DNA from: Candidatus Enterousia sp.
GTDB lineage: Bacteria > Pseudomonadota > Alphaproteobacteria > Rs-D84
Reading direction: 5' to 3'
Assembly: GCA_045614665.1 (NCBI GenBank)
Contig: JAZLDI010000002.1
Coordinates: 3,366 to 67,365, forward strand
DNA: 64,000 bases
The position numbers and the translations under genes were made by a program. Shown piece by piece: positions 15,676 to 64,000 of the stretch (its first letter is position 1; every line of letters starts with the position of its first letter). The notes under the pieces were generated by a model. It did not search any database and had not been told where the DNA came from. It was given only the letters and a program-made list of their open reading frames with translations.

Positions 15676-15689
15676 TTTGTCTTTTTCCC

Positions 15690-15718
15690 TTGCTTTTTTG
15701 TTTTTAGTATCTTATTAT
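15690..15718 (+). promoter_or_regulatory. sigma70-type promoter for tRNA-Phe
   Basis: TTGCTT (15690-15695), 17-nt spacer, TATTAT (15713-15718). Lies 12 nt upstream of the tRNA. Confidence 0.5.
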
Positions 15719-15730
15719 TTGTCCCGCGTT

Positions 15731-15806
15731 GGCTAGGTAGCTCAGTTGGTAGAGCAAGGGACTGAAAATCCCTGTGTCGGCGGTTCGATTCCGTCCCTAG
15801 CCACCA
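15731..15806 (+). tRNA. tRNA-Phe (anticodon GAA), CCA encoded
   Basis: 76-nt cloverleaf. Acceptor GGCTAGG/CCTAGCC, anticodon arm AGGGA-CTGAAAA-TCCCT, T-arm GGCGG-TTCGATT-CCGTC. On the strand opposite the flanking gatA and gatB. Confidence 0.9.
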
Positions 15807-15831
15807 TTTTTATTACCACTTCTTTTAAAGC

Positions 15832-15854
15832 GGCCGTTTTTACGGTCATTTTTT
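15832..15854 (+). terminator. terminator hairpin after tRNA-Phe
   Basis: GGCCGT-TTTT-ACGGTC stem-loop followed by a T6 run. Overlaps the gatA stop on the other strand. Confidence 0.45.
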
Positions 15855-24457: not shown

Positions 24458-24491
24458 AAAATAAATGCATCTGCCAAGGGGGAGATTACAT

Positions 24492-26120
24492 ATGAAAAAA
24501 TCATTTAAATTATTGGCTGTCTGTGGATTGATATGCGCGGCATTGGCGGGGTGTGCAACCAAAGAATCGGCCAAGGTGGCGGCCGCCGTTGATACTGATT
24601 TTATTAACGCGTATGATGCGTTCGAAATGGCGAAAAATCCACGCGCCAAGGTGGCAACGGGTGATACTGTCTCTATGTCCGAAGGGGTGTGGCTAGGGGA
24701 TACGTCGACCGTATTAGAACATCGTAACAATTTGCCGGCGAAATTTGAGACGGATACAGGTGTTACTATATTATTAAATGAACCAGTGTCATTACAGGTT
24801 TTGGCAAATGATATTTATTCGGTAACAGGTATCCCGGTGCGTATTGATAGTCAGGTTAATTCTGAAAAATTGCGTAAAACCGTAAATGTTGCGTATACCG
24901 GTAAATTGTCAGGATTGTTGTCCCAGATTTCGACGGATTTAGATATCCTTTGGTACTATGATAATAATGCAATTGTGTTTTATGAAACAGAAACCAAGAC
25001 ATTTACATTATATGCGCTGGGAACGGATGTTTCGTACCAGACCGCTGTTACCACAGACGAAGGAAATCAAGTGTCGTTGGAATCAACCTTGAAAGAATGG
25101 GACGAGGTCGAAAGTACAATCGCATCCATCATTGGCAAGGCGGATAATGCGGACTTTACCGTGTCACGCAGTTTGGGCACGATCACAGTAACGGCACCGC
25201 CATCGATTTTAAACCGTATTGGTGAATATATTGAACGTCAGAACAAACGTTTGTCACAATTGGTTACAATTGATGTGAAAGTTTTACAGGTTACAATTTC
25301 GAATGATACGGCGTTTGGATTAAACTTGGCGGCGGCGATTAATTCAACGTCTGGATTGAATATTGTTGCGAATCCAAAAAATAACTTGGCATCGACCGAG
25401 GCCAGTTCTATGAATATTGCTGTGTTGTCGAATGCGGTGTCGGCATTGACCGGTGCAACTCATATGGAGGGTTCTTCCACGGTCGAGGGGGCATATACAA
25501 ATGATCAGATCATGAATGGTTCTTTGTCGGCAGCCGCAGGCAGTAATGCTTTGATTGAAGCTTTGGCAAAACAGGGCAAGGTTTCATTGGTAACAAACGT
25601 TGGTGTTACGACACGTTCAAACCGCGTTGCCCCGGTCAGTAACACACGTACAACCGGATATATCAAACGTTTTGAATCACGTAATTTCACAACTGTTGAA
25701 TCCAGTACTGTTGACCAGGACGACCTGGAAACTGGTTTCACAATGCAATTGTTGCCAAATGTCTTGGAAAATGGACGTATCTTGCTGTTGTTCCGTATGT
25801 CGGTTCGTGAATTGTTGCGTATGTCAACACAGACAATTGGCGAGGTTACCCTGCAATTGCCAGAGGTTGAAGAACGTAGTTTTATGCAGGAAGTAATCAT
25901 GGAATCGGGTCAGATGTTGGTTGTGTCCGGCTTTGAAAAACAAACAAGCGAAGATACACGTTATGGTTTAGGAGATCCTGACTTTATGGCGCTGTCGGGG
26001 TCGCGTGAAACAGCGTCTACACGTGAAGTGTTGGTTGTTATCCTGACACCACAGGTGCTGGTAAGTCCGCTGGATTCAGAAAGAACAATTCAGCAGCACT
26101 GGGGCGCACCACTAAATTAA
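24492..26120 (+). CDS. lipoprotein secretin of the type IVb pilus class (PilN/BfpB/TcpC-like)
   Basis: The AAGGGGGAG RBS favours ATG 24492. Lipobox LAGC. The C-terminal secretin-like blocks are GFTMQLLPNVLENGRILLLF, MLVVSGFEKQ and REVLVVILTPQVL. Confidence 0.7.
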   Translation: MKKSFKLLAVCGLICAALAGCATKESAKVAAAVDTDFINAYDAFEMAKNPRAKVATGDTVSMSEGVWLGDTSTVLEHRNNLPAKFETDTGVTILLNEPVSLQVLANDIYSVTGIPVRIDSQVNSEKLRKTVNVAYTGKLSGLLSQISTDLDILWYYDNNAIVFYETETKTFTLYALGTDVSYQTAVTTDEGNQVSLESTLKEWDEVESTIASIIGKADNADFTVSRSLGTITVTAPPSILNRIGEYIERQNKRLSQLVTIDVKVLQVTISNDTAFGLNLAAAINSTSGLNIVANPKNNLASTEASSMNIAVLSNAVSALTGATHMEGSSTVEGAYTNDQIMNGSLSAAAGSNALIEALAKQGKVSLVTNVGVTTRSNRVAPVSNTRTTGYIKRFESRNFTTVESSTVDQDDLETGFTMQLLPNVLENGRILLLFRMSVRELLRMSTQTIGEVTLQLPEVEERSFMQEVIMESGQMLVVSGFEKQTSEDTRYGLGDPDFMALSGSRETASTREVLVVILTPQVLVSPLDSERTIQQHWGAPLN

Positions 26121-28236: not shown

Positions 28237-29259
28237 ATGAAAGATTTATTTGAAAAATTGCTGATTTTGCGAACGCCGGGTATTGGACCTGCGCGATATA
28301 ATGATTTGATTGCGCGATTCGGTTCTGTGGAACAGGCGGCCGCCAGTTTAACGAAAGATGTGTCACATATTGATATGGTGCGTCGTGAAATGGAAAATGC
28401 CGCAAATCTGGGGATAGAATACATATGTGATGATGATGCGCGATATCCCGTGGGATTAAAAGCTGTTAAAAATCATTCGCCGGTAATTTCTGTGCGTGGC
28501 AATATTGATGCATTGACGCGTCCAGTTGTGTCGATGGTTGGAACGCGGCATGCAACGGCGGCGGGGATGAATTTTATGGCGGATATATCAACGGCGTTTG
28601 CCACGCATGGTTTTGTTGTGGCATCTGGTATGGCAATGGGGTGTGATACGGCGGCGCATCGTGGCGCATTACGTGCAGAGGCGGATTTGGTGACGATTGC
28701 GGTGTTGGCTGGCGGGGTAGACTATGTATGGCCACTTGAAAACGAATCGCTTTATTATCAAATCTTGGAACGTGGATGCGTAATAAGTGAAATGCCGGTT
28801 GGTTTCAAGCCGACGGCGCCAAATTTTGTTCAGCGTAATCGAATCGTTGCGGGGTTGGGAGACACATTGATTCTGGGTGAAGCCGATATGAAGTCTGGCT
28901 CTATGACGACGGCGCGATTCGCAATTGAATATGGACGGACGGTATATGCAATTCCATCACATCCGTCAGATCCGCGGGGTGCTGGGCCTAATTCTTTGAT
29001 TCGTGCGGGTGTGGCAACACTTTGTATGGGGGTGGGGGATTTTTTTGAAAAAGGAGATTGTTTGTCCCAAAAACAAAAAAATGAGAAAAATGTCGATTCG
29101 GAAAACAATCTTATTGATGCATTGGGAACAATTCCAGTGTCAGAATCTGTATTGGCAGAGGTTGTCAAAAAATCCATTTCGGAAATTAAAAGCGAGTTAG
29201 TTGTTTTAGAATTGCAAGGAATAGTGCGAAAAGTTGATGGTGGTTATGTTCGTGCGTGA
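28237..29259 (+). CDS. dprA: DNA processing protein DprA (Smf)
   Basis: 340 aa. N-terminal RTPGIGPARYNDLIARFGS, Rossmann-like core VSMVGTRHATAAG...GADMKSGSMTTARFAIEYGRTVYAIP, and a C-terminal winged-helix-like tail. Confidence 0.88.
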   Translation: MKDLFEKLLILRTPGIGPARYNDLIARFGSVEQAAASLTKDVSHIDMVRREMENAANLGIEYICDDDARYPVGLKAVKNHSPVISVRGNIDALTRPVVSMVGTRHATAAGMNFMADISTAFATHGFVVASGMAMGCDTAAHRGALRAEADLVTIAVLAGGVDYVWPLENESLYYQILERGCVISEMPVGFKPTAPNFVQRNRIVAGLGDTLILGEADMKSGSMTTARFAIEYGRTVYAIPSHPSDPRGAGPNSLIRAGVATLCMGVGDFFEKGDCLSQKQKNEKNVDSENNLIDALGTIPVSESVLAEVVKKSISEIKSELVVLELQGIVRKVDGGYVRA

Positions 29260-31037: not shown

Positions 31038-32702
31038 ATGAAAAGGATTTTTTCATTAGCGATTTTGTTTTCTTTGGTATCTGTTTCGGTGTGGGCTGGT
31101 CATTGGGCTGATATGAGATCAAAGACTTGTGGTGGAGCTAACGAGTATTATCGACTGGATAATTCTGGTAGCTATTGTTTGGAATGTGATGATGATAGTG
31201 GGGATGCCCCGGCAAAGACACGTGTGTATTGGGCAGATTCAGGAAATGTTTATAGTAGAAAGTGTTTTATTAGTCCGAATCTCACCGGCGATGATCGTTG
31301 GATGGATCGAGAAAGTGTTTCACAATGTGCTGGTAAATGTAATGCACCAAAACAGAAAATTCCAGATACAGATAGTTTGTATATTTGTGGTAAAATAAAT
31401 TTAGCGATAAAGTCTTGGCATGATAGCGTTTTAGTTCAAGGCGGTTCACTTGATGATATAGATTGTTACTATATTGGATGTGGTCCTGATGAACCGTTGG
31501 GAACCAAAAAAGATCTAGATAAATGTAGTGCTGAAAATGATCCAAGTGCCACAAAGTGTGAGCAGGTTTGTGTGCTGGAATCGCCAAATTCGAAAAAGGC
31601 GGTTTGGAAGACTTATGTAAAAGAATGTAAAGATGGTATGACACCAGGTGGGTTCAACGAATATGGTTATACCAAGTGTGAAGGCGGTAATGGCAGTGTT
31701 AACCCTGGTGGCGGAAACCCCGGTGGTGGTTCGTCCAATGTGTCGGGATCGTGTGGAAACGAAATAAGAACGACAGATACCGCCGGACGTGGCGCATATA
31801 TTGTGCACTGGTACCGGGTCAAGGGTTGGAAGGGGACGTATCCAGGTAATGGAATGAATGACTTTAATTGTACCGTTTCGGGTAAGCATTTGGATGTCTA
31901 TGAAGAAAATGGTACATGGTATACAACAGGTAAATGTGTTTCTGAATCAAAGCGTCCGGGATGTACCCAGGCATATCCAGAGGGGCAGGCGCCAGGTTCA
32001 GGACAAAATGCTACAAGCCAAAAGAATTGTGAGGATTCGTATGGAACATGGGCAAATGGAGTGTGTGTATGTGATGCAAATAAAAATTTAATCAAAGACC
32101 CAAATGCTTTTTGCGTGTGTAAAGATGCGGATCATGTTCGGGTGCCCGCCAGTAAATCTTGCGAGATGACGTATACAGCAAAAGCAAAGTTGCTGTGTGA
32201 AGCAGCGGCTGTATCTGGAGCGGTTTGGAATGGTGTGGAATGTGCTTGTTCAGAGGTGAATAAGGAATGGAATGGCGCATCGTGTGTTGTGTCGGTGGCC
32301 TATGAGCAGTGCAAAAATATATTAGATGCTACGTGGAATACAGTAAAAAAACAATGCGTATGTAACGATGCGAACAAGATTGTTAATAAAGCAGGTACTA
32401 AGTGCGTGGAAACCCCACAAACTGTGGCGACAAGAAAAATTGGTGGTGCATTGGAGGATTTACGTGCTTTTGTTGCGGATTTGGAAGTCAGCAAGTGGAA
32501 AGATGCCGAAGGCAACTTTAATACCGCGCGTTTGGCATCGGATTTGACGGCTGGTGTTGTGTTGGGAACGGCCGGGGCATTGATTACCAGCAGTGTTGTA
32601 AAAAAGAATCAGGTAGAAAATGGTTTTGAAGATATAAGTTGCACAATTGGTGGTCAGACGGTTGCCGATTGGGGTGACGAGTTTACAGTTGGTGTCCATT
32701 AA
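31038..32702 (+). CDS. large Cys-rich exported protein with repeated W-x(3-5)-C-x-C modules and a C-terminal hydrophobic segment (hypothetical)
   Basis: 554 aa with a signal peptide ending VWA and more than 40 Cys. There is a G/N/P-rich linker (GGNGSVNPGGGNPGGGSS). Three repeats fit TWANGVCVCDANKN, VWNGVECACSEVNK and TWNTVKKQCVCNDANK. A hydrophobic stretch (LTAGVVLGTAGALITSSVV) lies near the C-terminus. Confidence 0.55.
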   Translation: MKRIFSLAILFSLVSVSVWAGHWADMRSKTCGGANEYYRLDNSGSYCLECDDDSGDAPAKTRVYWADSGNVYSRKCFISPNLTGDDRWMDRESVSQCAGKCNAPKQKIPDTDSLYICGKINLAIKSWHDSVLVQGGSLDDIDCYYIGCGPDEPLGTKKDLDKCSAENDPSATKCEQVCVLESPNSKKAVWKTYVKECKDGMTPGGFNEYGYTKCEGGNGSVNPGGGNPGGGSSNVSGSCGNEIRTTDTAGRGAYIVHWYRVKGWKGTYPGNGMNDFNCTVSGKHLDVYEENGTWYTTGKCVSESKRPGCTQAYPEGQAPGSGQNATSQKNCEDSYGTWANGVCVCDANKNLIKDPNAFCVCKDADHVRVPASKSCEMTYTAKAKLLCEAAAVSGAVWNGVECACSEVNKEWNGASCVVSVAYEQCKNILDATWNTVKKQCVCNDANKIVNKAGTKCVETPQTVATRKIGGALEDLRAFVADLEVSKWKDAEGNFNTARLASDLTAGVVLGTAGALITSSVVKKNQVENGFEDISCTIGGQTVADWGDEFTVGVH

Positions 32703-38933: not shown

Positions 38934-38967
38934 AATAAAAACTAAATAGCAAATGGAGGCAATACAT

Positions 38968-39432
38968 ATGAAACAAGAATCTGGACGTTCAATGATTGAG
39001 ATGTTGGGTGTGTTGGCAATTATGGGTGTTATTACCGTTGGGGCAATTGAAATGATTCAGCTGGCGATGAATACACAGAAGCGTAATACCGTTAATGAAG
39101 AAGTTTTGCAGATTGTAACCCAAGTGCGCAATATACACGGAGAATATGATGATTTTTCAAATATAAACAATTCTACAATCTTTAACGCAATTGGTATGTC
39201 TGATACAAATCCATATGGAGGTAAGTACGAGGTTGCCGTCGATCCGTCCAATCCACGTCAGTTTGTGGTAAGTATTACGGGGCTTAGTAAAAATGAGTGC
39301 GAAACCTTTATAACCAAGGCTTGGTCCGATTCGATTGGTTATAAAATGTCAGATGGTAAAAGCAGTGGCGCATCAGGTTCTTGCACAAATGGAAATGGCC
39401 GCAATACGGTTCAAATTACGTATGGTGAATAG
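38968..39432 (+). CDS. type IV pilin-like protein (prepilin-type N-terminal cleavage/methylation domain)
   Basis: GGAGG sits 8 nt upstream of ATG 38968. A short leader MKQESG is followed by RSMIEMLGVLAIMGVITVGAI (Gly -1, Glu +5, hydrophobic helix). Two C-terminal Cys could form the D-region disulfide. Confidence 0.6.
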   Translation: MKQESGRSMIEMLGVLAIMGVITVGAIEMIQLAMNTQKRNTVNEEVLQIVTQVRNIHGEYDDFSNINNSTIFNAIGMSDTNPYGGKYEVAVDPSNPRQFVVSITGLSKNECETFITKAWSDSIGYKMSDGKSSGASGSCTNGNGRNTVQITYGE

Positions 39433-50358: not shown

Positions 50359-50955
50359 TTATAAATCGTATTCAAGAGCAGAATGGATATGAGGATTAGT
50401 GTTCTTTGCTTTTGTTATAACATCTGTGCGTGCGTGATTAAAGGTTTGAATTTTGTCTGGGATTATTTGTATGTTTTTAGGATCAAAGATAACATGTTCA
50501 ACGTGTCCGTCTGTGCTGTTGAAGATTATGCCGTCGTATCCGGCGTTTTGAAAAGCTTTGCTGATTTCGATTGCTAGTATTCTGCGGTCATATTTGTTGC
50601 CCATTATTTTATCGTGGTTTGCCTCTCCTTGGGCTATATATTGTTCGATTTGTTGGGCAATTTTTTGTTGTTCTGGGGTATATTGTTTTGAATCGTCGGG
50701 GAATGATGATATATCCAGTGGGTTTTGCACGTTTACCTTTACTGCTATACGAACCAGGTTTGGGTCATTCCAATAACAGTTCTTGGATTGTGTAAAGAAT
50801 ATTCCGTCAAATTGGTTTGTGTACTCAGTGGTTGCTTTTTTTACCTCTGAAGCAGGCTTGAAACCATCGCGCAGAATTTGTTCTGCGTTTTCTTTGGTTG
50901 TATAGTGGTAAAGTGTATATTGTATTTTGCTGGCAGGAAATATTGCTTTTGCCAT
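50359..50955 (-). CDS. putative ADP-ribosyltransferase-fold protein (polyvalent-protein ART-like), hypothetical
   Basis: 198 aa. LYHYTTKENAEQILRDGF (His), DGIFFTQS, and the C-terminal GYDGIIFNSTDGHVEHVIFDPKNIQII resemble the H-Y/T-E arrangement of ART domains found in phage/plasmid polyvalent proteins. Recognised by eye only. Confidence 0.35.
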   Translation of the reverse strand: MAKAIFPASKIQYTLYHYTTKENAEQILRDGFKPASEVKKATTEYTNQFDGIFFTQSKNCYWNDPNLVRIAVKVNVQNPLDISSFPDDSKQYTPEQQKIAQQIEQYIAQGEANHDKIMGNKYDRRILAIEISKAFQNAGYDGIIFNSTDGHVEHVIFDPKNIQIIPDKIQTFNHARTDVITKAKNTNPHIHSALEYDL

Positions 50956-53927: not shown

Positions 53928-53952
53928 ACTAGGAAAAAAGGGAGTATGTTTT

Positions 53953-54678
53953 ATGAAAAAATTAGCATCATTTTGTTTGGCTTCGATTATGGCGATGTCT
54001 GCGGCGTCTGCGGAATCAGATGTTGTTGTTCAGCGTTCGCCGGTTGGACGTCGTGTTATGGTTCGTGAATATCAGCCGTATTCGGTTGAAACGGCCAAGG
54101 GTTGGTATATGGGTGGTCGTTTGGCGTTAAATATGCTGAATTGGACAAATGAATACAGCACAAATGATGCAAATCCAGTGTCAGATAATGATAGCGACGA
54201 GTATTCGTTTGAGGCGTTGTTTGGGGGGTCTGTGTTTGCGGGAACTGATTTTCAGTTATCTAATGAGTGGTTTCGTGCCGAGGTTGAGGCCGGTTTGATG
54301 GGGCAATTTACAGATAAAGACCAGGGCATTGAATTTAAAATGACGGTTCCATATGTAATCGCTAATGGTTATTACGATTTTATAAATGGCTTGTATGTTG
54401 GTGCGGGGCTTGGGCTGGCGTTGCCAAAGACGGAACTGGATTGGGCGGCATTGGTTGGTGGTGAGCGTTCAGAACGTGCAGTTTCTCCAATGATGGCGTT
54501 GATGTTTGGATGGTCTTATGATTTGGATGCGCGTATAACATTGGATTTACGTTATCGTTTGTCCGGATTCTGGGGACCGGAACATACACGCAGTTTTGCC
54601 GATGGTATCGAATTTACCACAGATGTAGGATTTGTGCTGGAAAATTCATTGTCAATGGGGTTGCGTTACAGATTCTAA
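53953..54678 (+). CDS. small outer-membrane beta-barrel protein (Omp25/OMP_b-brl-like)
   Basis: AAAGGGAG RBS before ATG 53953. Signal peptide ends ASA and the C-terminus is GLRYRF. Paralogue of 9018-9629 (shared RAEVE, NGYYDF, GAGLGLA and DLRYR blocks). Confidence 0.7.
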   Translation: MKKLASFCLASIMAMSAASAESDVVVQRSPVGRRVMVREYQPYSVETAKGWYMGGRLALNMLNWTNEYSTNDANPVSDNDSDEYSFEALFGGSVFAGTDFQLSNEWFRAEVEAGLMGQFTDKDQGIEFKMTVPYVIANGYYDFINGLYVGAGLGLALPKTELDWAALVGGERSERAVSPMMALMFGWSYDLDARITLDLRYRLSGFWGPEHTRSFADGIEFTTDVGFVLENSLSMGLRYRF

Positions 54679-54709: not shown

Positions 54710-54739
54710 TTGACCCCGATTCGCAAAATATGGTATTAT
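54710..54739 (+). promoter_or_regulatory. sigma70-type promoter with GANTC after the -35 (fibre gene 1)
   Basis: TTGACC (54710-54715), 18-nt spacer containing GATTC at 54718-54722 (CCGATTCGC), TATTAT (54734-54739). Confidence 0.55.
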
Positions 54740-54785
54740 AAATACCGATAAGAGAGTGGTATCGCAAGTATCAGTGAGAGAAGAT

Positions 54786-56501
54786 ATGAAGACCGAAACA
54801 AAAATTTCAAGTATAGCATTAGTATGCGCGTTGTGCGCGGTTGTGGCAACGCCGGCAATGTCTGCGGCGGCGGTGCGTAGCCTGGGTGGTGCGGGCACGT
54901 TCAGCAGTGCGTCCAGTGCGGCGTCGTCCAAGACGTCGGGTGCAACGTCGACACGTGCGGGTTCTTTGCGTGTGTTGCCATCAACGACCAAGGCGACGAC
55001 GTCCACGACCACCACAACGTCAAAGCCGACATCGTCGGGTGCTGCGACAACGACGCGTGTGTCGGCAACGCCGCGTTTATCGATTGGTAAGTATTTGCCA
55101 CATCGTGTTGTTGCGTCAACCGGCGGGTCTTCGGCGGGCGATGCCGGCAATGGTTCAACCGGGGGTGTTGATTTTGTAGATAAAAAAGAATGGGATGAGG
55201 TTTATGCAAAACTGCCAACGCGTGTCGATAACTTAGAAACGGGTGTTGTTGTTCTTGAGGAAAAAGTTACAGATTTGGAAAAGACGATTGGTGATGCGGA
55301 TGTGATTGAGTTGCAAACGATTGTTAATAATCTGCAAACAAACGTTAATACGATTGTGGAACAATTGCCGGCGGATGATGCGCCGGTTGCAAGCCAGGAA
55401 TCTGTAACTCAGATTAATACCACGGTAACGAATATCAATAACACGATCGAGCAGTTACAGGAACAAATTACCAAGATTGAGGGCGGGGATAGCTCTGTTT
55501 CGATTTTGGAACTGGAACAAAGTGTCAAAACTTTGCAGGATGATGTTAGTACGTTAAAATTGGACGTATTGAATGTTCAGGGTGAATTTGCCAAGTATGT
55601 ATTGGATACAGAGCTGGAAGAAGCCTTGAAGACTGTTGATGATGAGGCGTTAATTGCGGCGTTGCGCTCAGAATATGAAGCAAAGGTTGCAGAGCTGGAA
55701 AAAGATATCACAACATTGACATCTAATTTTACAAATTATTACACAAAGTCAGAAGTTGATAAGGCGATTGCAGATGCGGCGTTTGATCCGTCTACGATTG
55801 ATTTGACCGATTATGCCAAAACGGCGGATTTGGAAAAGTTTGCGTTGACGTCGGATTTAGAGGCTGCCCAAATGACTTTGTCGGCATTGATTGATACCAA
55901 GATTGCAACGGGCGATTTTGCGGCGGCAAAAGATTTAGAGGCTTTGGATACCGAATTGTCGGCAATTGTTGCGGCGGGTGTTGTGGATAGCGCGACTTTG
56001 GCATCGGTTAAGTTGGAACTGTCGAACTTGATTAAAGCAAATTCGGATCAGGATGTTATAACGGCGGCTGCTTTGGATCAGTTAGAAAAAGCTTTGGATA
56101 GCGAATATTATACATCGGCCCAGGTTGATGCGCTGTTGGCGCAAAAGGTAGATGTGTCATCGTTGGATGCATTGGAATTGCAGAAGACGGATACTGGTGC
56201 GTATAAACCGTTGGGTGCCCTGGCGTATGAAGATGAAATAGCCGCAGAACAAATTACCAGTATTAACGCGACATCTATTCAGGGTAAGATTACCACTGAA
56301 CAGATTGACAGCTTGGATGCCAGCAAGATTACCGGGACAATTGAATCTGATCAATTGGCGGACGGGGCGGTTACCGCGGACAAGATTACAACCGGTGACG
56401 CAACGTTAGAAGAAGGTAATCTGGCGATGCTGGTATCTGATGGAAAGGGTGGCGTGACCTGGCAATCGGTTGGTGTTGCCACCGGCACAGATGGAAATTA
56501 A
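54786..56501 (+). CDS. fibre-family protein 1: exported Ser/Thr-rich linker plus long coiled-coil/tail-fibre-like repeats (hypothetical)
   Basis: Signal peptide ends AMSA. It is followed by an S/T/A-rich low-complexity block and then Leu/Asp/Thr/Ala heptad-like sequence. C-terminal blocks SKITGTIESDQLADGAVTADKITTGDAT, and the tip NLAMLVSDGKGGVTWQSVGV. Confidence 0.6.
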   Translation: MKTETKISSIALVCALCAVVATPAMSAAAVRSLGGAGTFSSASSAASSKTSGATSTRAGSLRVLPSTTKATTSTTTTTSKPTSSGAATTTRVSATPRLSIGKYLPHRVVASTGGSSAGDAGNGSTGGVDFVDKKEWDEVYAKLPTRVDNLETGVVVLEEKVTDLEKTIGDADVIELQTIVNNLQTNVNTIVEQLPADDAPVASQESVTQINTTVTNINNTIEQLQEQITKIEGGDSSVSILELEQSVKTLQDDVSTLKLDVLNVQGEFAKYVLDTELEEALKTVDDEALIAALRSEYEAKVAELEKDITTLTSNFTNYYTKSEVDKAIADAAFDPSTIDLTDYAKTADLEKFALTSDLEAAQMTLSALIDTKIATGDFAAAKDLEALDTELSAIVAAGVVDSATLASVKLELSNLIKANSDQDVITAAALDQLEKALDSEYYTSAQVDALLAQKVDVSSLDALELQKTDTGAYKPLGALAYEDEIAAEQITSINATSIQGKITTEQIDSLDASKITGTIESDQLADGAVTADKITTGDATLEEGNLAMLVSDGKGGVTWQSVGVATGTDGN

Positions 56502-56574
56502 AAGAGAGAATTGAAAAACAAAAGGCACGGTTGAAAAACCGCATAACAAAAACAAAAAAAGAAAGGAAAGAAAA

Positions 56575-57702
56575 ATGAAAGTAAAAAATATTATGTTCGC
56601 AGGATTTGCCTCTGCAATCTTGTCAGGCGTATGCGGTGCCGCCAGTGCCGCAGATTATAACCTGGTTACCGAGGGTTATGTTACAGAAAAATTAGCCGGC
56701 AAGGCAGATACGGGTGCATCTTATACCAAGGGTGAAACCGATACTTTGTTAGGTGGCAAGGTTTCAGCAGACACATATGCCGCATATATTGAAACACAGG
56801 AAGGTGTTGATAAAGCACAGGATGCTAAGATCCAGGCAAATACAGCTGCTATTGATGGCTTGAGTGGTGTTGATGGTACGGGTTTTGCAACAATGCAACA
56901 GGATATTGCAACTTTAAAAACAGCTGTTAATGACGAAAATGGTGCTGTTGCACAGAAAATCGCAACCGCGATTGCCGAAGAAGAATTGCGCGCAGATGGT
57001 GCATATGCTCCAGTAAGTTTGACACAAACTGTTACTGATTTGTCTGGTCTGGTTGCAACTAAGGCAGATGCAAGTGCATTAGCTGGCAAACAGGATACGA
57101 TCGATGATTTGGCAGATATCCGTTCTGGTGCTGCATTGGGTGAAACAGCGGTTCAGCCAGGGGCTTTGGAAACAACGTTGGGTTCTTATGTAACAACAAC
57201 TGCTTTGGAACAGGCTGGCTATGCAACAACGGAAGAAATGAACACTGCATTGCAGGGTAAACAGGCCACAATTGAAAACCTGGCAACGATTGAAGCAAAT
57301 GCTGCCAAGGGTGCCACAGCGGTTCAGCCAGAAACATTGACACAGACATTGGATTCTTATGCAACAACGGAAGCAATGAATACAGCTTTGCAGGGTAAGC
57401 AGGCCACAATTGAAAACCTGGATACGATTATTGCGGGTGCGGAGGCTGGTGCCACAGCGGTTCAGCCGGGTGCTAATATTTCCGTATTGGTAAATGATTC
57501 TGAGTTCCAGACTGCTGAAAATGTAAACACATTGATTGGCCAGGCACAAATTGCAGAATCCCAGGTTACAGGTCTGACAAATGCATTGGCAGGTAAGTTG
57601 GATGTTATGGAAAATGCGGGTACATATCTGGTAAAACGTGATGGTGAAGGTAATATCAGCTATGTGTCGGTTGAAATTGTTGGTGAAACCGAAGCAGAAT
57701 AA
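56575..57702 (+). CDS. fibre-family protein 2 (hypothetical exported tail-fibre-like protein)
   Basis: Signal peptide ends AASA. The mature N-terminus is ADYNLVTEGYVTEKLAGKAD. Contains three ~46-aa repeats (ALQGKQATIENL...ATAVQP). The tip is GTYLVKRDGEGNISYVSVEIVG. Confidence 0.6.
   Translation: MKVKNIMFAGFASAILSGVCGAASAADYNLVTEGYVTEKLAGKADTGASYTKGETDTLLGGKVSADTYAAYIETQEGVDKAQDAKIQANTAAIDGLSGVDGTGFATMQQDIATLKTAVNDENGAVAQKIATAIAEEELRADGAYAPVSLTQTVTDLSGLVATKADASALAGKQDTIDDLADIRSGAALGETAVQPGALETTLGSYVTTTALEQAGYATTEEMNTALQGKQATIENLATIEANAAKGATAVQPETLTQTLDSYATTEAMNTALQGKQATIENLDTIIAGAEAGATAVQPGANISVLVNDSEFQTAENVNTLIGQAQIAESQVTGLTNALAGKLDVMENAGTYLVKRDGEGNISYVSVEIVGETEAE
57223..57480 (+). repeat. 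tandem in-frame duplication (138-bp period) inside fibre gene 2, with a third diverged copy upstream (about 57070-57222)
   Basis: GCAACAACGGAAGAAATGAACACTGCATTGCAGGGTAAACAGGCCACAATTGAAAACCTGG... recurs at 57223 and 57361 with few differences over the first ~100 bp. Confidence 0.8.
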
Positions 57703-57781
57703 TCTAAAACAAAACGCTTTGAATTGATGCCAAAGCCGTCATAAGCCCAGGCATAAAAAACGAAAGAAAAGGAAAGAAAAA

Positions 57782-58873
57782 ATGACAGTAAAAAATATTA
57801 TGTTCTCGGGTGTTATGGCGGCTATCTTGATGGCGGGTGCCAATGCGCACGCGGCGGTTGAAATCGCCAGTCGTGGTTATGTTGATACCGAAGTTGCAAA
57901 AAAAGCAGATGCGACCGAATTTTCAACGTTAAAGGGCGTTGTTGAAAACGCAGACACCGGTTTGGCAACAAAAGCCAGCAAGACTGAATTGCAGACCGCA
58001 CAGTCAGATTTGCAAGATGCAATTAATTTGAAAGCAAACGCTGCAGATGTTTATACCAAGGATGATGTTTACACAAAGACTGAATCAGATGGTCGCTTTG
58101 ACGCCATTAATGCCGCGCAGAATGCATTGACTGCGGCGCAAAGCTATACAGACGCTCAGCTGAAAACTTTGACAGACAGTTTGGGTGGAACCGGTGAAGA
58201 TGGTGAAAGCACTGGTTTGACTGGTATTGTTGCGGGACATACGGTTCAGATAGGTGCTTTGGAAACCAAGGTTGGTGAAAAAAATGTTGCTACACAGATT
58301 AGCGAGGCTTTGTCGACTTATGCAAAAACCGCAGATGTAGAATCCAAGGATGCTGCAACATTAGAAGCTGCCAAGGGTTATACGGATGAAAAAGTTGGTG
58401 CTTTGACGGGTGAAAATGGTGCAATTACTACATTGGCGGCAAGGGTAACCGCAAATGAAGGTGCCATCGCCACAAATACAGAGGAAATTGCCAAAAAAGC
58501 AGATAAAACAACCGTTGAAGGGATTCAATCAACAATTAATAGCCTGGGCGATACATATGCAACGGATGAAGAAGTTGAGGGTATTCAAACAACTTTACAG
58601 AACAATATCGATACCAAGGTTGCAACAGAAACATATAATGCCAAGGTTGCAGAATTGAGCAGTGCGATCACAACAGAAAAAGAACGTGCCGAGGGTGTAG
58701 AAGGTGGTTTGAATACTCGCTTGACAACGGCTGAAGGAACTATTTCAACCCTGTCAAATGATTTGGCGACCAAGATTACAAAGCCAGCGGCTTGTCAAAC
58801 AGGCAACTGTGTATTGGCGATGATGAATGGTGGTAATCCGGAATGGATTATTCTGACATTGCCAACGGAATAA
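57782..58873 (+). CDS. fibre-family protein 3 (hypothetical exported tail-fibre-like protein)
   Basis: The leader and first codons are near-identical to gene 2 (MTVKNIMFSG versus MKVKNIMFAG). The mature N-terminus is AVEIASRGYVDTEVAKKAD. Contains ADVYTKDDVYTKTESDGRF, and a tip with two Cys (ACQTGNCVLAMMNGGNPEWIILTLPTE). Confidence 0.6.
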   Translation: MTVKNIMFSGVMAAILMAGANAHAAVEIASRGYVDTEVAKKADATEFSTLKGVVENADTGLATKASKTELQTAQSDLQDAINLKANAADVYTKDDVYTKTESDGRFDAINAAQNALTAAQSYTDAQLKTLTDSLGGTGEDGESTGLTGIVAGHTVQIGALETKVGEKNVATQISEALSTYAKTADVESKDAATLEAAKGYTDEKVGALTGENGAITTLAARVTANEGAIATNTEEIAKKADKTTVEGIQSTINSLGDTYATDEEVEGIQTTLQNNIDTKVATETYNAKVAELSSAITTEKERAEGVEGGLNTRLTTAEGTISTLSNDLATKITKPAACQTGNCVLAMMNGGNPEWIILTLPTE

Positions 58874-58885
58874 TAAAAAAATGAT

Positions 58886-58909
58886 GTAAAGGGCAAAAAT
58901 GCCCTTTAC
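58886..58909 (+). terminator. terminator-like hairpin after fibre gene 3
   Basis: GTAAAGGGC-AAAAAT-GCCCTTTAC perfect 9-bp stem. No clear T-run follows. Confidence 0.4.
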
Positions 58910-58934
58910 ACGATTCGTGTAAAAATGATAAAAT
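58906..58934 (+). promoter_or_regulatory. sigma70-type promoter with GANTC after the -35 (fibre gene 4)
   Basis: TTACAC (58906-58911), 17-nt spacer starting with GATTC (58912-58916), TAAAAT (58929-58934) with a TGn extension. Confidence 0.45.
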
Positions 58935-58962
58935 AGATTTATAGGAAGGAAAGGATTACCAA

Positions 58963-60378
58963 ATGAAAAAATTAACAGCTGGGATTTTCACAGTATTAAT
59001 CGGTCTGTGTGCCGCAAATTCTGCGGACGCAAGTGTTGCATCAACTGGTTGGGTCGAAGAACAAGTTAGCGCTTTGGCAACAACGGTTGAAACAAATAAA
59101 ACAACGGCGGCAAATGCAACCAAGGCGGTTTCGGATGCGTTGACAGAATATAAAACGTCTAATGATGCGGTGGTTGCGTTAAAGGCGGCCAATGCTGACT
59201 TACAGGCGTTGCAGGCAAAAGTTGGTACCCTGCCAGAAGGTAGCGCAGACGTTGTTGCATACATCAATAAAAAGACAGAAGGTATTGCAACTGATGCGGC
59301 TTTGGGTGAATTACAGACACAGGTTAGTGGCAATACAACTGCAATTTCAACATTGAATGGTTCCGGTGAAGGCTCGGTTGCGAAATCTATTTCCGATGCT
59401 TTGGCTAGCTATACAAATACAACAGATATGACCGCTGCGATCAAAGTAGTTTCTGATGCGTTGGATACTCATGAAGCGACCGCTGCATCGACATATGCAA
59501 CAATTGATAGTCTGAATACTGCAAATCAGGCGATTGCAGGGTTAGAAACCAGCAAGGAAGCAGTTGTGAATAAGTTGACATCGGATAATGCAACGCAAAT
59601 AGATGATTCTAATAAAGATACGTTCTATCCCACAATTGGTCGTGTAACTGCTGAGATTGATAAGACTGTTACACAAGTGAATAATGATATTACGGCGTTA
59701 ACTGCTGGGTTAGGGACTAAGGCGGACAAAGCAACGGTAGAAGCATTGACAACAACTGTTGGTAATAATGCAGCAACGGCATCGCAGGCCACCGCGGCGG
59801 TTGCAAAAGATTTGTCTGATTATCAGGCGGCTAATAATGCGGCTGTAAAGGCAAATACGGATGCGATTGCGGAAATTAATGATGCCGAAGATGGTATTTT
59901 GGCTCAGGCAAAAGCATATGCCAAGGACCAGGCGGATGCTGCGTCGACCAGTGCGTCTGGCGTTGCGACTGATTTAGCGGGCTTTAAGACAACTGTAAGT
60001 CAGACCTATGCGACACAAGAAGCCTTGGGTGCGACAAATACGAATGTTACGAATTTGACAGGTCGTGTTGGTACGAATGAAACGAATATTGCCGCTAATT
60101 CTACGAATATTACAAAGAATGCAGAAAATATCTTGGCAAATGCAAAAGATATTGAGGCGCATACAACAGCAATTGCGGCGGCCCAGGCCCAGGCGGACAA
60201 AGGTGTTGCGGATGCAGCGGCGGCTCAGTCAACGGCAAATCAGGCAAAGGCAACCGCTGATGCGGCGATTCCAAAACCACAGGGTGAATGTCAGGATGCA
60301 GATAACAAATGTGTGTTGACATATAATAACTCAACTTATACATGGGAAGTTATTGAACGTTCCGCTGAGGGTAAATAA
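58963..60378 (+). CDS. fibre-family protein 4 (hypothetical exported tail-fibre-like protein)
   Basis: Signal peptide ends ADA. The mature N-terminus is SVASTGWVEEQV. Shares the module DSNKDTFYPTIGRVTAEIDKTV. The tip has two Cys (GECQDADNKCVLTYNNSTYTWEVIERS). Confidence 0.6.
   Translation: MKKLTAGIFTVLIGLCAANSADASVASTGWVEEQVSALATTVETNKTTAANATKAVSDALTEYKTSNDAVVALKAANADLQALQAKVGTLPEGSADVVAYINKKTEGIATDAALGELQTQVSGNTTAISTLNGSGEGSVAKSISDALASYTNTTDMTAAIKVVSDALDTHEATAASTYATIDSLNTANQAIAGLETSKEAVVNKLTSDNATQIDDSNKDTFYPTIGRVTAEIDKTVTQVNNDITALTAGLGTKADKATVEALTTTVGNNAATASQATAAVAKDLSDYQAANNAAVKANTDAIAEINDAEDGILAQAKAYAKDQADAASTSASGVATDLAGFKTTVSQTYATQEALGATNTNVTNLTGRVGTNETNIAANSTNITKNAENILANAKDIEAHTTAIAAAQAQADKGVADAAAAQSTANQAKATADAAIPKPQGECQDADNKCVLTYNNSTYTWEVIERSAEGK
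59605..59700 (+). repeat. shared DNA module (copy in fibre gene 4) matching 61075-61170 and 62596-62652
   Basis: GATTCTAATAAAGATACGTTCTATCCCACAATTGGTCGTGTAACTGCTGAGATTGATAAGACTGTTACA... has 2 differences from the gene-5 copy in the first 81 bp, by my reading. Confidence 0.8.
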
Positions 60379-60388
60379 TAAAAATTAA

Positions 60389-60419
60389 TATCGGGACGAT
60401 GTGATTTGTCGTCCCGATA
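60389..60419 (+). terminator. rho-independent terminator after fibre gene 4
   Basis: TATCGGGACGA/TCGTCCCGATA perfect 11-bp stem with a T-rich tail downstream. Confidence 0.6.
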
Positions 60420-60459
60420 AATTCGGTTTTTAATAGTAAAAAGAAAAAGGAAGGAAAAG

Positions 60460-61725
60460 ATGAAAAAAATATTGACAGTGTCGTTGGTTGCAATGATGGC
60501 TGTATCGGCGGCGCGTGCGGATATTGCGTCCACCGCATATGTTCAGGGTGCGGTCGGTGCAGAAACAACGCTGCGTGAAAATGCGGATACCGCGATTAAA
60601 AATTCTATTGGTACGGTAAGTTCGACTAATATGGGGACGACGGCATCAACTGTTGTTACGGCTATTAAAGAACATTCGGATGCGATTAGTGATATTAACG
60701 ACGAATTGGATACAATGGCGACCAGTGAAACTGTTCAGGGTATCGAGACTGCTTTGTCGACGTTGCAGGGTACGGTTTCAACAAATGAAACAGATATTGA
60801 GAAAAAAGTTTCAGATTTGACGACTGTTGTTAACGGTAAACAGGCGACATTGGACACTAATCAGTTGGCGGCTGTAAATTCTGGTGTGACAACTTCTACT
60901 GTGTCTCAAGTTGCTACCAATAAAAGTGATATTGCAGGAATTAAATCATCTGCCTATGCGACATCTGGTATCACATCGTCCAAGGTATCTACATATGATG
61001 GATATGCGGCACAGATTAATGCCAAGGAAGCATCTGCGAATAAGTTGAAAACAGGTGATACGACGACCATAAATGATTCTAATAAAGATACGTTATATCC
61101 CACAATTGGTCGTGTAACTGCTGAGATTGATAAGACTGTTACAGAAGTGAATAATGATGTTTCGGCCTTGTCGGGTGGATTGGCTGCATTGCAGAAGACG
61201 GTTTCTGATAATGAAACTGATATTGAAGCAAAAGTCGCGACTAAGGTAACGGCCAATGCTGCGATTACTGGTGCGACCAAAGCGAAGATTACATATGATT
61301 CTAAGGGTTTGGTAACCGGTGGTGCGGATTTGGCTGCATCTGATATTCCAACATTGGCGACGTCTAAGATTTCTGGATTGGATACCGCTCTGGCTGCTAA
61401 GGAAGTGACATCAAATAAAGTTACGACATTAAGCAGTACTTCGACAAATACACAGTATCCAAGTGCAAAGGTTGTTTATGATGAATTAGCCAAGAAGCAA
61501 GCGACATTATCAACGGCGCAATTAAGTGCGGCGAATTCCGGTATTACATCGGCCAAAGTATCTACGTATGATACAGCCGCAACAAACGCTTCTGCGGCAA
61601 AGGGTGTTACTGATTTGATTAGTGCGGGTACAACCGGTTCGGATGGTACATATGTTTTGACGGCAACGGTTTCTAATAACACAGTGACTGGTTATAAATG
61701 GGAACTGATTGATCGTGCGTATTAA
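60460..61725 (+). CDS. fibre-family protein 5 (hypothetical exported tail-fibre-like protein)
   Basis: Signal peptide ends ARA. The mature N-terminus is DIASTAYVQGAV. Modules ASANKLKTGDTTTINDSNKDTLYPTIGRVTAEID and KVTANAAITGATKAKITYDSKGLVTGGADLAASDIPTLATSKISGL. The tip is GTYVLTATVSNNTVTGYKWELIDRAY. Confidence 0.6.
   Translation: MKKILTVSLVAMMAVSAARADIASTAYVQGAVGAETTLRENADTAIKNSIGTVSSTNMGTTASTVVTAIKEHSDAISDINDELDTMATSETVQGIETALSTLQGTVSTNETDIEKKVSDLTTVVNGKQATLDTNQLAAVNSGVTTSTVSQVATNKSDIAGIKSSAYATSGITSSKVSTYDGYAAQINAKEASANKLKTGDTTTINDSNKDTLYPTIGRVTAEIDKTVTEVNNDVSALSGGLAALQKTVSDNETDIEAKVATKVTANAAITGATKAKITYDSKGLVTGGADLAASDIPTLATSKISGLDTALAAKEVTSNKVTTLSSTSTNTQYPSAKVVYDELAKKQATLSTAQLSAANSGITSAKVSTYDTAATNASAAKGVTDLISAGTTGSDGTYVLTATVSNNTVTGYKWELIDRAY
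61021..61131 (+). repeat. module B in fibre gene 5 (pairs with 62542-62652 in gene 6)
   Basis: 111 bp with about 7 differences by my count. Confidence 0.8.
61234..61500 (+). repeat. module A in fibre gene 5 (pairs with 62194-62460 in gene 6)
   Basis: 267 bp. There is a single difference in the first 205 bp and about ten overall, by my reading. Confidence 0.85.
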
Positions 61726-61736
61726 TCGAAAAAATA

Positions 61737-61774
61737 ATCCCTGGGTGGGTGGTGTAAAGCCACCCATCCGGGAT
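61737..61774 (+). terminator. terminator hairpin after fibre gene 5
   Basis: ATCCCTGGGTGGGTGG...CCACCCATCCGGGAT imperfect long stem with TTGTTTTT downstream. Confidence 0.5.
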
Positions 61775-61790
61775 AGTGTATTGTTTTTGG

Positions 61791-61827
61791 ACTTATTATA
61801 AAAATTGCAGTAATTTTTATAATAAGT
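61791..61827. repeat. perfect 16-bp inverted repeat upstream of the fibre gene 6 promoter
   Basis: ACTTATTATAAAAATT-GCAGT-AATTTTTATAATAAGT. Confidence 0.85.
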
Positions 61828-61841
61828 GTCGAAAAATGTCC

Positions 61842-61871
61842 TTGTGTTGAATCTTGCTTTTTAGATATAAT
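61842..61871 (+). promoter_or_regulatory. sigma70-type promoter with GANTC after the -35 (fibre gene 6)
   Basis: TTGTGT (61842-61847), 18-nt spacer containing GAATC at 61849-61853, TATAAT (61866-61871). Confidence 0.5.
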
Positions 61872-61917
61872 GCAAAGACAAGAAGAGAGTGGAATTAAAA
61901 TCGGGTGGGGATTTTAG

Positions 61918-63015
61918 ATGTTAAAGCAAAAGTTTGTTTTCGCTGTTTCTTTGGTTGCAATGGTAATGGTTGGTATTGGTACGGCACGCGCGGATATTGC
62001 GTCCACCGTTTATGTTCAGCAGGGGGTTAATTCTGCTAAGACTGCGGCCAATGCAGCGCAGACATCGGCAAATAATGCGAATACGGCGGCGGTTAATGCG
62101 CAAGATTCTGCAGATGCCGCCCAGGAGGCGGCAGATGCGGCCCAGGCATCCGCAGATGCGGCGGCGGCATCGGCCAAGACCGCAAATGATGCAGTCGCGA
62201 CTAAGGTAACGGCCAATGCTGCGATTACTGGTGCGACCAAAGCGAAGATTACATATGATTCTAAGGGTTTGGTAACCGGTGGTGCGGATTTGGCTGCATC
62301 TGATATTCCAACATTGGCGACGTCCAAGATTTCTGGATTGGATACCGCTCTGGCTGCTAAGGAAGTGACATCAAATAAAGTTACGACATTAAGCAGTAGT
62401 TCGACAGATACACAATATCCAAGTGCGAAAGTGGTTTATACTGAATTGGCCAAGAAGCAAAATACTTTGACAATTGATTCTTCGTTAAGTTCAAGCAGTA
62501 CAAATCCGGTTCAGAACAAGGTTATAAATACCGCGCTGGCTGCTAAGGAAGCGTCTGCGAATAAGTTGAAAACAGGTGATACGACGACCATAGGTGATTC
62601 TAATAAAGATACGTTATATCCCACGATTGGTCGTGTAACAGCAGAGATTGATTCTGCTCTTGCTGAAGTGGATAATGATATTGCTGCATTGAATGGTGGC
62701 TTGACGTCGTTGCAGACAACTGTTTCGGGTAAACAAGCAACATTAACGACGTCGAATGTTACGACATCTGGCAATGGTAATGTTGTGACGGCTGTGACGG
62801 CGGCTAATGGTGTGGTTACGGTTACCAAGGGGACATCTTTGGGTTCCTTGGCAACAAAAAGTGCGGTAGCGAGCGGTGATATTACCGATGGAACGATTGC
62901 AACCGCAGATATTGCGAATGCTGCGGTGACGGCCGCGAAGACAAGTGGGGTTATTGGTTATATCCCATCGGGCAGTGCGACGTCTACGACATATGCAACC
63001 ATTTGGGTTCAATAA
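61918..63015 (+). CDS. fibre-family protein 6 (hypothetical exported tail-fibre-like protein)
   Basis: Signal peptide ends ARA. The mature N-terminus is DIASTVYVQQGV, followed by an Ala/Gln/Asp-rich coiled coil. Modules A and B are shared with gene 5 but in the reverse order. C-terminal DGTIATADIANAAVTAAKTSG and the tip TTYATIWVQ. Confidence 0.6.
   Translation: MLKQKFVFAVSLVAMVMVGIGTARADIASTVYVQQGVNSAKTAANAAQTSANNANTAAVNAQDSADAAQEAADAAQASADAAAASAKTANDAVATKVTANAAITGATKAKITYDSKGLVTGGADLAASDIPTLATSKISGLDTALAAKEVTSNKVTTLSSSSTDTQYPSAKVVYTELAKKQNTLTIDSSLSSSSTNPVQNKVINTALAAKEASANKLKTGDTTTIGDSNKDTLYPTIGRVTAEIDSALAEVDNDIAALNGGLTSLQTTVSGKQATLTTSNVTTSGNGNVVTAVTAANGVVTVTKGTSLGSLATKSAVASGDITDGTIATADIANAAVTAAKTSGVIGYIPSGSATSTTYATIWVQ
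62194..62460 (+). repeat. module A in fibre gene 6 (pairs with 61234-61500)
   Basis: Direct sequence comparison, offset 960 bp. Confidence 0.85.
62542..62652 (+). repeat. module B in fibre gene 6 (pairs with 61021-61131)
   Basis: Direct sequence comparison, offset 1521 bp. Confidence 0.8.
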
Positions 63016-63017
63016 AG

Positions 63018-63043
63018 AAATCCCGGCATTTGTCGGGATTTTT
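63018..63043 (+). terminator. rho-independent terminator after fibre gene 6
   Basis: AAATCCCGG...TCGGGATTT hairpin followed by TTT. Confidence 0.6.
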
Positions 63044-63968: not shown

Positions 63969-64000
63969 GGTATAAATCTATTTTTATCTTTTCATTATTT

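Follow-up and report, generated by a model that had tools for sequence, protein, structure and literature searches.

We describe an ordered array of six genes (g1-g6) in a 64,000-nucleotide stretch of the chromosome of Candidatus Enterousia sp. (contig JAZLDI010000002.1; this whole stretch is hereafter called the window). The encoded proteins are conserved between related genomes at both their N- and C-terminal ends, while the rod between the ends is highly variable and mosaic. Our preferred explanation, which we hold with about as much confidence as doubt, is that they are lineage-specific, Sec-exported, fibritin-like hypervariable envelope fibres, serving as the coat or for the adhesion of a probably partner-dependent bacterium. 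All six same-strand open reading frames (ORFs) were present at the coordinates given in a first-pass annotation of this DNA, which was made from the sequence alone. The array and its parts are organized as follows (positions in the window; nt, nucleotides; aa, amino acids).

53950-54678, plus strand: small outer-membrane protein (OMP) gene, OMP_b-brl; in about 20 related genomes it (39-71% identical) stands next to the gene of the g1 type.
54710-54739, plus strand: promoter-like site 5' of g1, TTGACC-18-TATTAT with a TG extension; from a consensus scan only, which does not indicate function.
54786-56501, plus strand: g1, an ORF of 571 aa that leads the array; its product starts with a signal peptide.
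54867-55178, plus strand: Ser/Thr-rich N-domain of g1 (residues ~28-131), predicted to be disordered yet conserved.
56418-56474, plus strand: C-terminal hairpin of g1 (residues 545-563), which follows helical segments at residues 133-462 (both predicted by AlphaFold).
56575-57702, plus strand: g2, 375 aa, MKVKNI-type; predicted mature N-terminus ADYNLVTEGYV, C-terminal hairpin GTYLVKRDGEGNISYVSVEIV.
57129-57197/57300-57368 and 57220-57329/57358-57467, plus strand: internal repeats of g2 (~46/57 residues).
57782-58873, plus strand: g3, 363 aa, MKVKNI-type; N-motif IASRGYV, C-terminal Cys loop and hairpin ACQTGNCVLAMMNGGNPEWIIL.
about 57976-58552, plus strand: central cassette of g3, swapped in a near-identical strain.
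58963-60378, plus strand: g4, 471 aa, MKKLTAGI-type; N-motif VASTGWV, hairpin CVLTYNNSTYTWEVIER.
59550-59741, plus strand: block of g4 common to g5 and g6.
60271-60312, plus strand: hypervariable Cys-Cys loop of g4 (residues 437-450), just before the hairpin.
60460-61725, plus strand: g5, 421 aa, MKKILTVS-type; N-motif DIASTAYV at nt 60520-60543.
61216-61407, plus strand: block of g5 shared with phage-type proteins (residues 253-316).
61648-61710, plus strand: C-terminal hairpin of g5 (residues 397-417).
61918-63015, plus strand: g6, 365 aa, the last array gene; N-motif DIASTVYV, an Ala-rich helix and the C-terminus …IPSGSATSTTYATIWVQ.
62193-62473 (94% nt identity) and 62541-62732, plus strand: blocks of g6 copied from g5.
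63016-63043, plus strand: terminator-like hairpin after g6 (consensus scan).
56526-56543 (g1-g2), 57716-57736 (g2-g3), 58884-58911 (g3-g4) and 60389-60419 (g4-g5): similar stems in the gaps between the genes.

Candidatus Enterousia belongs to the order Rs-D84, a group with genomes smaller than 1 Mb in which biosynthesis of amino acids, nucleotides and lipids, respiration and flagella are missing; its members have been proposed to depend on a partner (PMC12306168). A scan for related loci, performed with a narrow N-terminal alignment in one genome per GTDB species, gave 29 loci. With one exception they came from Candidatus Enterousia or from metagenome-assembled genomes (MAGs) of unnamed gut Alphaproteobacteria; the sources of the MAGs were sheep, goat, yak, deer, buffalo and human. 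The exception, a 'Litoreibacter' locus (L031), contained no ORF of the family and was discarded as a false positive. About 20 genomes have the same arrangement, in which acyltransferase, DUF218, ftsX and ftsE genes (minus strand) are followed by the OMP_b-brl gene (plus strand) and then by the array: a g1-type gene, one to four genes of the MKVKNI type, one of the MKKLTAGI type, one of the MKKILTVS type and one gene ending in IWV[EQ]. VTT-domain, rbfA and lepA genes are located downstream of the array in the relatives, from which the genes beyond position 64000 were read. The first-pass annotation had suggested a chromosomal repertoire of fibres; judged by gene order, the six genes are not a fluid set but positional orthologues held in place across the clade.

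The window itself is ordinary chromosome, with a penicillin-binding protein (PBP) gene and recJ, lolA, tatC, gatAB, suf, dnaA, gyrB, dnaJ, uvrC, dnaN, tolB and ftsEX. Phage genes, which had been reported as missing near the array, were found nowhere in the 64 kb, and the gene directly upstream of the array does encode a beta-barrel OMP, as stated earlier (Pfam OMP_b-brl, E=1.5e-8). It should be mentioned that a second small OMP_b-brl gene is located at 8973-9629, so that the small-barrel family is multi-copy in this reduced genome.

The start codon of g1, ATG at 54786, is the one used by the g1 orthologues. All six proteins are rich in alanine (13-21%) and threonine (12-17%). In BLAST comparisons g4, g5 and g6 were mutually related and g2 was weakly related to g3 (28% identity over the full length), while g1 showed no significant similarity to the other five, its resemblance to them being limited to the architecture and to the hairpin motif at the C-terminus. 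The description of the locus as a tandem family is therefore correct for g4-g5-g6 and g2-g3 but not for g1. The relationship of g5 and g6 is a mosaic one: a block of 93 residues (95% identical) and a block of 65 residues (77% identical) occur in both proteins in swapped order. At the DNA level repeats of 281 nt (94% identical between g5 and g6) and of 192 nt (in g4, g5 and g6) were revealed.

Each of the six products starts with a signal-like segment, first basic and then hydrophobic, which ends in a small-x-small site. Read by eye, and with a slash at the putative point of cleavage, the sites are ASA/AD in g2, AHA/AV in g3, ADA/SV in g4, ARA/DI in g5 and g6, and SAA/A or AAA/V in g1. This reading bears out the Sec-type signal previously assigned to all six products, and the signal peptides are probably cleaved. 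The short motif [IV]AS..[YW]V (LVTEGYV in g2), which had also been noticed before, was confirmed in g2-g6 at 1-6 residues past the predicted site, with no second copy inside the proteins. It is missing from g1, the N-domain of which has the invariant pattern VR.LGG.GT..SASSAA…R.G..RV…PRLS.G.YL. The same N-terminus is present in all g1 homologues found (see below), and a search of 1.84 billion representative proteins gave only 221 matches to the N-domain, always at residue 1. Cysteines of the six proteins are confined to the signal peptides and the last 30 residues, and the rod between signal peptide and tip is Cys-free, as was originally stated. By inspection, none of the six N-termini contains a lipobox [LVI][ASTVI][GAS]C, the Cys in the signal peptide of g4 being Val in its orthologues, and they were also not those of pilins; both assignments were rejected.

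To describe the C-terminal ends, we aligned the C-terminal 70 residues of the array proteins, of the six encoded at a syntenic locus and of about 50 homologues. The C-termini of g1-g5 proved to be variants of one motif of ~30 residues, roughly (I)P.P..[C….C or DG.Y]VL[TA]-turn-(Y).W[EVQ].[IV]. In this motif (I)P.P precedes a C-x5-6-C loop or a DG-type turn and a hydrophobic strand (YVLT, CVLT or AMLV); then come a turn rich in Gly, Asn and Asp and a second strand around an almost invariant Trp (Y.WE.I.R or TWQSV). Only g6 ends otherwise, without the hairpin motif, and in 12 genomes the final gene of the array keeps the IWV[EQ] end. The six proteins had been credited with different tips, and these had been tentatively taken for exchangeable receptor-binding tips. 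Neither view is supported: apart from g6, the array proteins and about 60 homologues align to a single motif, and hairpins of ~30 residues are too small and too uniform for a repertoire of receptor-binding domains.

Comparison of positional orthologues revealed that (i) the signal peptides are their best-conserved part, with mean identities of 0.60-0.81 and a 'signature' of its own at each array position; (ii) the last 30 residues are conserved to a lesser degree (0.31-0.34); and (iii) the rods are the most variable (0.22-0.25). The orthologues also vary in length, from 232 to 642 aa in the g5 type, from 271 to 560 aa in the g4 type and from 296 to 841 aa in the g1 type. In one related locus (L002), the flanks of which are 86-88% identical to the window in DNA, correspondence position by position is limited to the N- and C-termini. 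In g3, for instance, residues 84-319 are closest to the rod of the gene in position 4 of that locus (49% identity; 88% in DNA over 295 nt).

The same pattern was observed at a short evolutionary distance, in a close strain (L033) with 95-96.5% DNA identity to the window. Proteins encoded in the flanks are 98-100% identical between the two, and the values for the array are 95% for g1, 98% for g2, 58% for g3, 92.6% for g4, 96.7% for g5 and 98% for g6 (part of the protein). In g3 the first 66 and the last 77 residues are identical, and the ~230 residues between them have been replaced by a segment with about 35% identity. The small OMP is only 71% identical, with differences in patches after residue 57, and on this comparison is itself hypervariable; the patches are presumably surface loops. 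Nonsynonymous and synonymous codon differences numbered 35 and 21 in g4 and 14 and 9 in g5, compared with 4 and 18 in ftsE, 6 and 14 in ftsX and 0 and 16 in the acyltransferase gene. By these measures, the array genes evolve much faster than their neighbours.

Substitutions in g4 are concentrated in the Cys-Cys loop, where 7 of 14 residues differ between the two strains, against 28 of 457 elsewhere in the protein (Fisher p=1.6e-5). At larger evolutionary distances positional orthologues swap hairpins of the Cys-loop and DG types. Because of this hot spot and of the switching of hairpin types between orthologues, the C-terminal end is probably exposed. The first-pass annotation had tentatively proposed a conserved base with exchangeable tips and had suggested that strains be compared for tip replacement. 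The base is indeed conserved, but so is the C-terminal end, and it is the shaft that is exchanged: the tip of g3 is unchanged in the close strain and its middle is swapped. The variable Cys loop of g4 and the switching of hairpin types speak in favour of the earlier view. A switch by DNA inversion or phase variation was also considered and rejected, since only short imperfect inverted repeats were found and there is no recombinase gene nearby.

AlphaFold2 models of g5 and g1 as monomers consist of long helical segments, non-helical stretches between them and a terminal beta-hairpin. In the g5 model the helices comprise residues 25-52, 60-87, 90-130, 133-163, 216-274 and 334-388, and the hairpin comprises residues 397-417. 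The predicted local distance difference test score (pLDDT) of the hairpin region is about 84 in g5 and about 70-74 in g1. Insofar as these monomer models, of modest confidence, can be relied on, the proteins would resemble T4 fibritin (wac) in having a segmented helical rod closed by a beta-hairpin of about 27-30 residues. Some of the C-terminal sequences, such as GTYLVKRDGEGNISYVSVEIV of g2 and GDYVLAVSNGQKGWFEVV among the homologues, are also similar by eye to the T4 foldon, a sequence of 27 letters. Unlike fibritin, the array proteins have signal peptides and many of them a disulfide-type Cys loop, and their trimeric state is only presumed.

Searches with g5, g1 and g3 gave 765 (E<=1e-3), 280 and 152 homologues, respectively; nearly all of them are metagenomic, and the named ones are all 'Alphaproteobacteria bacterium'. 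About half of the best matches to g5 have no signal peptide and start like phage fibre proteins (MAKKVLTDLNLNQNELQNAVIQNLASAP…GQ.YYNT). What these proteins share with g5 and g6 is only the block AITGATKAKITYDSKGLVTGGADLAASDIP.L..SKISGL, at 67-88% identity over 33-64 residues. One carrier of the block (P0016) is encoded two genes downstream of a tape-measure protein of 2004 residues, on a contig with an integrase and an amidase gene upstream, and other carriers have BppL_N, Mtd_N, PTR or Phage_head_fibr domains. In addition, two phage-type proteins contain …TQVATTAFVQDAI… (VATTAFVQDAI), which resembles the N-terminal IASTAYVQGAV of the family; we report this as a lead only.

For g3 there were a few weak matches without a signal peptide, and among the matches collected in these searches no phage link was seen for g1, g2 and g4. 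All sequence blocks quoted in the first-pass annotation as phage-fibre-like do exist in the array proteins, but their sharing with phages can be upheld for the g5/g6 block, weakly for g3 and not for the rest. Apart from this block, which is limited to g5 and g6, the array proteins differ from phage tail-fibre proteins in their signal peptides, in the lack of an N-domain for virion attachment and in their fixed chromosomal locus without phage genes. Phage_fiber_2, PTR, Mtd_N, BppL_N and similar Pfam domains were not found in the six proteins at E<=1.

In searches against Pfam, NCBIfam and PHROGs no family reached the threshold for any of the six proteins, and only sub-threshold coiled-coil noise was obtained; the PHROG matches were weak and unrelated, to scaffold and minor-head families. 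Sequence searches of PDB with g5, g6 and the C-terminal profile gave nothing usable. The earlier statement that the six proteins contain no barrel, anchor, lipobox or pilin domain agrees with our Pfam and NCBIfam scans. As far as these sequence searches reach, the family is undescribed and lineage-specific, with no Pfam, NCBIfam, PHROG or PDB family to claim its members.

The closest analogues, though not homologues, appear to be the mosaic adhesive trimer (MAT) fibres of Bdellovibrio bacteriovorus (Caulton et al., 2024; PMC10769870). These homotrimeric fibres, which are displayed on the cell surface, begin after the signal peptide with a beta-rich domain of ~130 aa that does not vary, and their C-terminal tips are large and diversified (S74 protease/chaperone, TNF-like and others); their genes, 21 per genome, are scattered, and their route to the surface and anchoring partner are unknown (PMC10769870). 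The comparison is apt in that both are chromosomal multigene families of mosaic build in a bacterium that depends on other cells, and in that both have, behind a signal peptide, a long fibre containing elements like those of phage fibres (here in g5 and g6). There are, however, clear differences. The conserved N-element has only ~8 residues in g2-g6, and the AlphaFold helix of g5 begins at residue 25; the N-domain of g1 is Ser/Thr-rich and predicted to be disordered instead of beta-rich. Peptidase_S74 and other tip domains are absent, diversity resides in the shaft and not in the uniform hairpin of ~30 residues, and the genes form a single ordered array of positional orthologues. No sequence relationship to MATs was detected in Pfam, NCBIfam and PDB searches. 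The likeness to the chimeric fibres of predatory bacteria, suggested from the outset, can be retained as an analogy, but the N-domain and tip features of MATs are not found here.

Trimeric autotransporter adhesins of the YadA family are likewise exported, repetitive, coiled-coil fibres of Gram-negative bacteria with mosaic evolution. This assignment was rejected, as Pfam and NCBIfam scans revealed no YadA-type C-terminal barrel, head or neck domains, and a two-strand hairpin is present instead. Lpp and other alanine-zipper lipoproteins were excluded by inspection, the invariant lipobox Cys at the cleavage site being absent.

It can be hypothesized that, after cleavage of the signal peptide, a very short conserved N-terminal cap starts the rod, and that in g1 a Ser/Thr-rich N-domain of ~100 residues replaces the cap. 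The rod would consist of helical segments of coiled-coil type broken by non-helical blocks and closed by the C-terminal beta-hairpin of ~30 residues. By analogy with the foldon of T4 fibritin, the hairpin may nucleate the folding of the oligomer, probably a trimer, and set its register. The conserved N-terminal end would be the cell-proximal docking end, with the co-located and co-varying small OMP and/or the g1 N-domain as candidate partners, and the rod and the small C-terminal loop would be the exposed parts. Diversity of the rods would be maintained by recombination between paralogues, by allelic replacement of cassettes between strains and by an excess of amino-acid-changing substitutions. 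In an organism with so small a genome and without biosynthesis of amino acids, nucleotides or lipids, the most likely role of such proteins would be that of a fibrous surface coat or of adhesion fibres in contact with a partner or host, under immune or phage pressure. Of the surface-fibre reading in the first-pass annotation we keep exported, elongated, fibre-like proteins with no known anchor that are not prophage genes; the design based on tip exchange is abandoned.

Several observations weigh against this explanation. The monomer models are of low confidence as a whole, with a mean pLDDT of 66 for g5 and 57 for g1, and a Foldseek search with the g5 model gave 0 matches in PDB and only noise (E>0.6) in BFVD, a result that is uninformative with a low-confidence monomer. 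Hydrophobic periodicity of 3.5 residues is weak (z = 0.2-3.0 against shuffles), so that the 'heptad-like' character formerly ascribed to the rods has the long helical segments predicted by AlphaFold in its favour but not the periodicity. The fibritin likeness is an analogy and no family assignment, because the C-terminal profile scores -1.8 bits against the foldon sequence and finds no foldon-bearing chain in PDB. Among the matches to g1, g3 and g5, only g5/g6 share a high-identity block with phage-type proteins; a tblastn search with the g5 block in 50,697 deposited phage genomes found no match, because of which the phage link rests on metagenomic contigs. Neither an outer-membrane anchor nor a dedicated secretion signal was detected in the Pfam and NCBIfam scans of the six proteins, and the adjacency of the OMP gene, seen within one narrow lineage, could be mere synteny. 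Finally, the conservation of the signal peptides is unusually strong; a recombination anchor, a constraint on translation or targeting and an uncleaved membrane anchor are possible causes.

Among the alternatives, we consider it unlikely that a single long appendage is assembled from the six products, as consecutive segments in the order of their genes, in the way that gp34-37 form the long tail fibre of phage T4. The g1 N-domain would anchor such a chain, each hairpin would be capped by the free IAS..YV of the next protein and g6 (…IWVQ) would be the distal cap. The distribution of motifs agrees with this scheme: genes of the first type invariably have an N-domain of their own and a hairpin and lack the N-motif, the middle genes have both N-motif and hairpin, and in the last type the N-motif is present and the hairpin always absent. 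Throughout the clade both this pattern and the order of the genes are preserved, the N-motif lies 0-6 residues from the predicted cleavage site and would become a free N-terminus, and all six positions are kept in a genome of less than 1 Mb. Vertical inheritance of six paralogues, however, explains the pattern equally well. Arrays have anything between 1 and 4 genes of the MKVKNI type, and the exposed-looking hypervariable Cys loop of g4 is easier to reconcile with a free tip than with a joint that is buried; a covariation test would be powerless, as the motif is nearly invariant. In its full form, with the paralogues as consecutive segments of a self-assembling Sec-exported appendage, the g1 N-domain anchored to the co-encoded OMP and g6 as distal cap, the scheme is rather improbable. 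If true, the appendage would be a cellular counterpart of the long tail fibre of phages, hundreds of nanometres in length and with hypervariable shafts, with which an epibiont or parasite of reduced genome would reach its partner.

We would also give little weight to the possibility that the proteins are periplasmic structural rods, perhaps replacing proteins of the Lpp type in keeping the outer membrane or OMP at a distance from, or tethered to, peptidoglycan. They have a Sec signal and yet no recognisable outer-membrane route or anchor; their neighbours include the envelope and division genes ftsEX, tolB, lolA, the OMP gene and an AsmA-like gene; and Ala-rich helical rods recall alanine-zipper lipoproteins, one homologue having a weak Alanine_zipper match. 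A 2-3-fold variation in length between orthologues (232-642 and 296-841 aa) is nevertheless ill-suited to a spacer of fixed length, and no lipobox was found by inspection. Cassette replacement, nonsynonymous excess and a hypervariable loop are typical of exposed proteins, and the block that g5 and g6 share with phages has no obvious periplasmic role.

Release of the products in soluble or vesicle-borne form, as decoys for antibodies or phages or as matrix fibres, and perhaps through the secretin encoded 30 kb upstream, seems very unlikely to us. Such a fate would agree with the absence of an identified anchor, with hypervariability as a sign of immune or phage exposure and with the TcpQ-domain protein, secretin and type-IV-pilin-like gene in the window. 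The conserved N-terminal end and the kept pairing with the OMP and the g1 N-domain, on the other hand, suggest docking, and the secretin, in its setting with DprA and the pilin-like gene, looks like part of a competence pilus. A degraded prophage, tailocin or gene-transfer-agent fibre module is largely refuted: in spite of the g5/g6 block common to proteins in the tail-fibre position of phages and of the weak PHROG scaffold and minor-head matches, all six products have signal peptides, the 64 kb contain no phage structural, integrase or lysis genes, the locus is fixed beside ftsEX across the clade, no deposited phage genome matches and the base composition is not anomalous.

Rs-D84 is a widespread uncultured gut lineage, and nothing is known on how contact with the partner is made (PMC12306168). 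The array, of about 8 kb, takes up roughly 1% of such a genome, is kept in every related genome examined and is the fastest-evolving stretch of its surroundings; for these three reasons it is the prime candidate for the contact or coat structure. It may also be of use in the search for the partner, in the typing of strains and in enrichment by antibodies. If hypervariable envelope fibres are indeed encoded here, they would be the second independent case, after the MATs of Bdellovibrio, of exported bacterial fibres with blocks resembling phage tail fibres, and their design, with a hypervariable shaft between two conserved ends, differs from that of MATs. How fibres exported by Sec get across the outer membrane and become attached to it is a question that the locus raises anew.

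Several other features of the array and the window should be mentioned. Stem-loops were found in every gap of the array except g5-g6; the scan as a whole gave 12 stems, which is not above the 9.3 expected from shuffles, so that the evidence is weak. They could be terminators, attenuators or hairpins that stabilise the mRNA. At 23516-26120, 28237-29259 and 38953-39432 the window contains a TcpQ-domain protein gene beside a secretin gene, the DprA gene and a small ORF resembling a type IV prepilin (…G/RSMIEMLGVLAIMGV…, with the slash as above). This set resembles a competence or type IV pilus-like machine, and no channel for folded proteins other than its secretin was seen in the window. A protein of 512 residues encoded at 10887-12425 has no Pfam match and ends in …GYKIAAGIDVKF, with a C-terminal Phe like that of OMPs; it may be an autotransporter-like or a novel outer-membrane protein. 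Another gene, at 31038-32702, encodes a large Cys-rich secreted protein without family assignment that has a hydrophobic stretch at its C-terminus. A similar Cys-rich protein of 667 residues is encoded in L002 at 14472-16475, after DUF3419, downstream of the array in relatives. Finally, between tolB and the acyltransferase gene (50359-50955, minus strand) there is a weak sub-threshold match to ART-PolyVal, the ADP-ribosyltransferase domain of polyvalent proteins of phages and plasmids.

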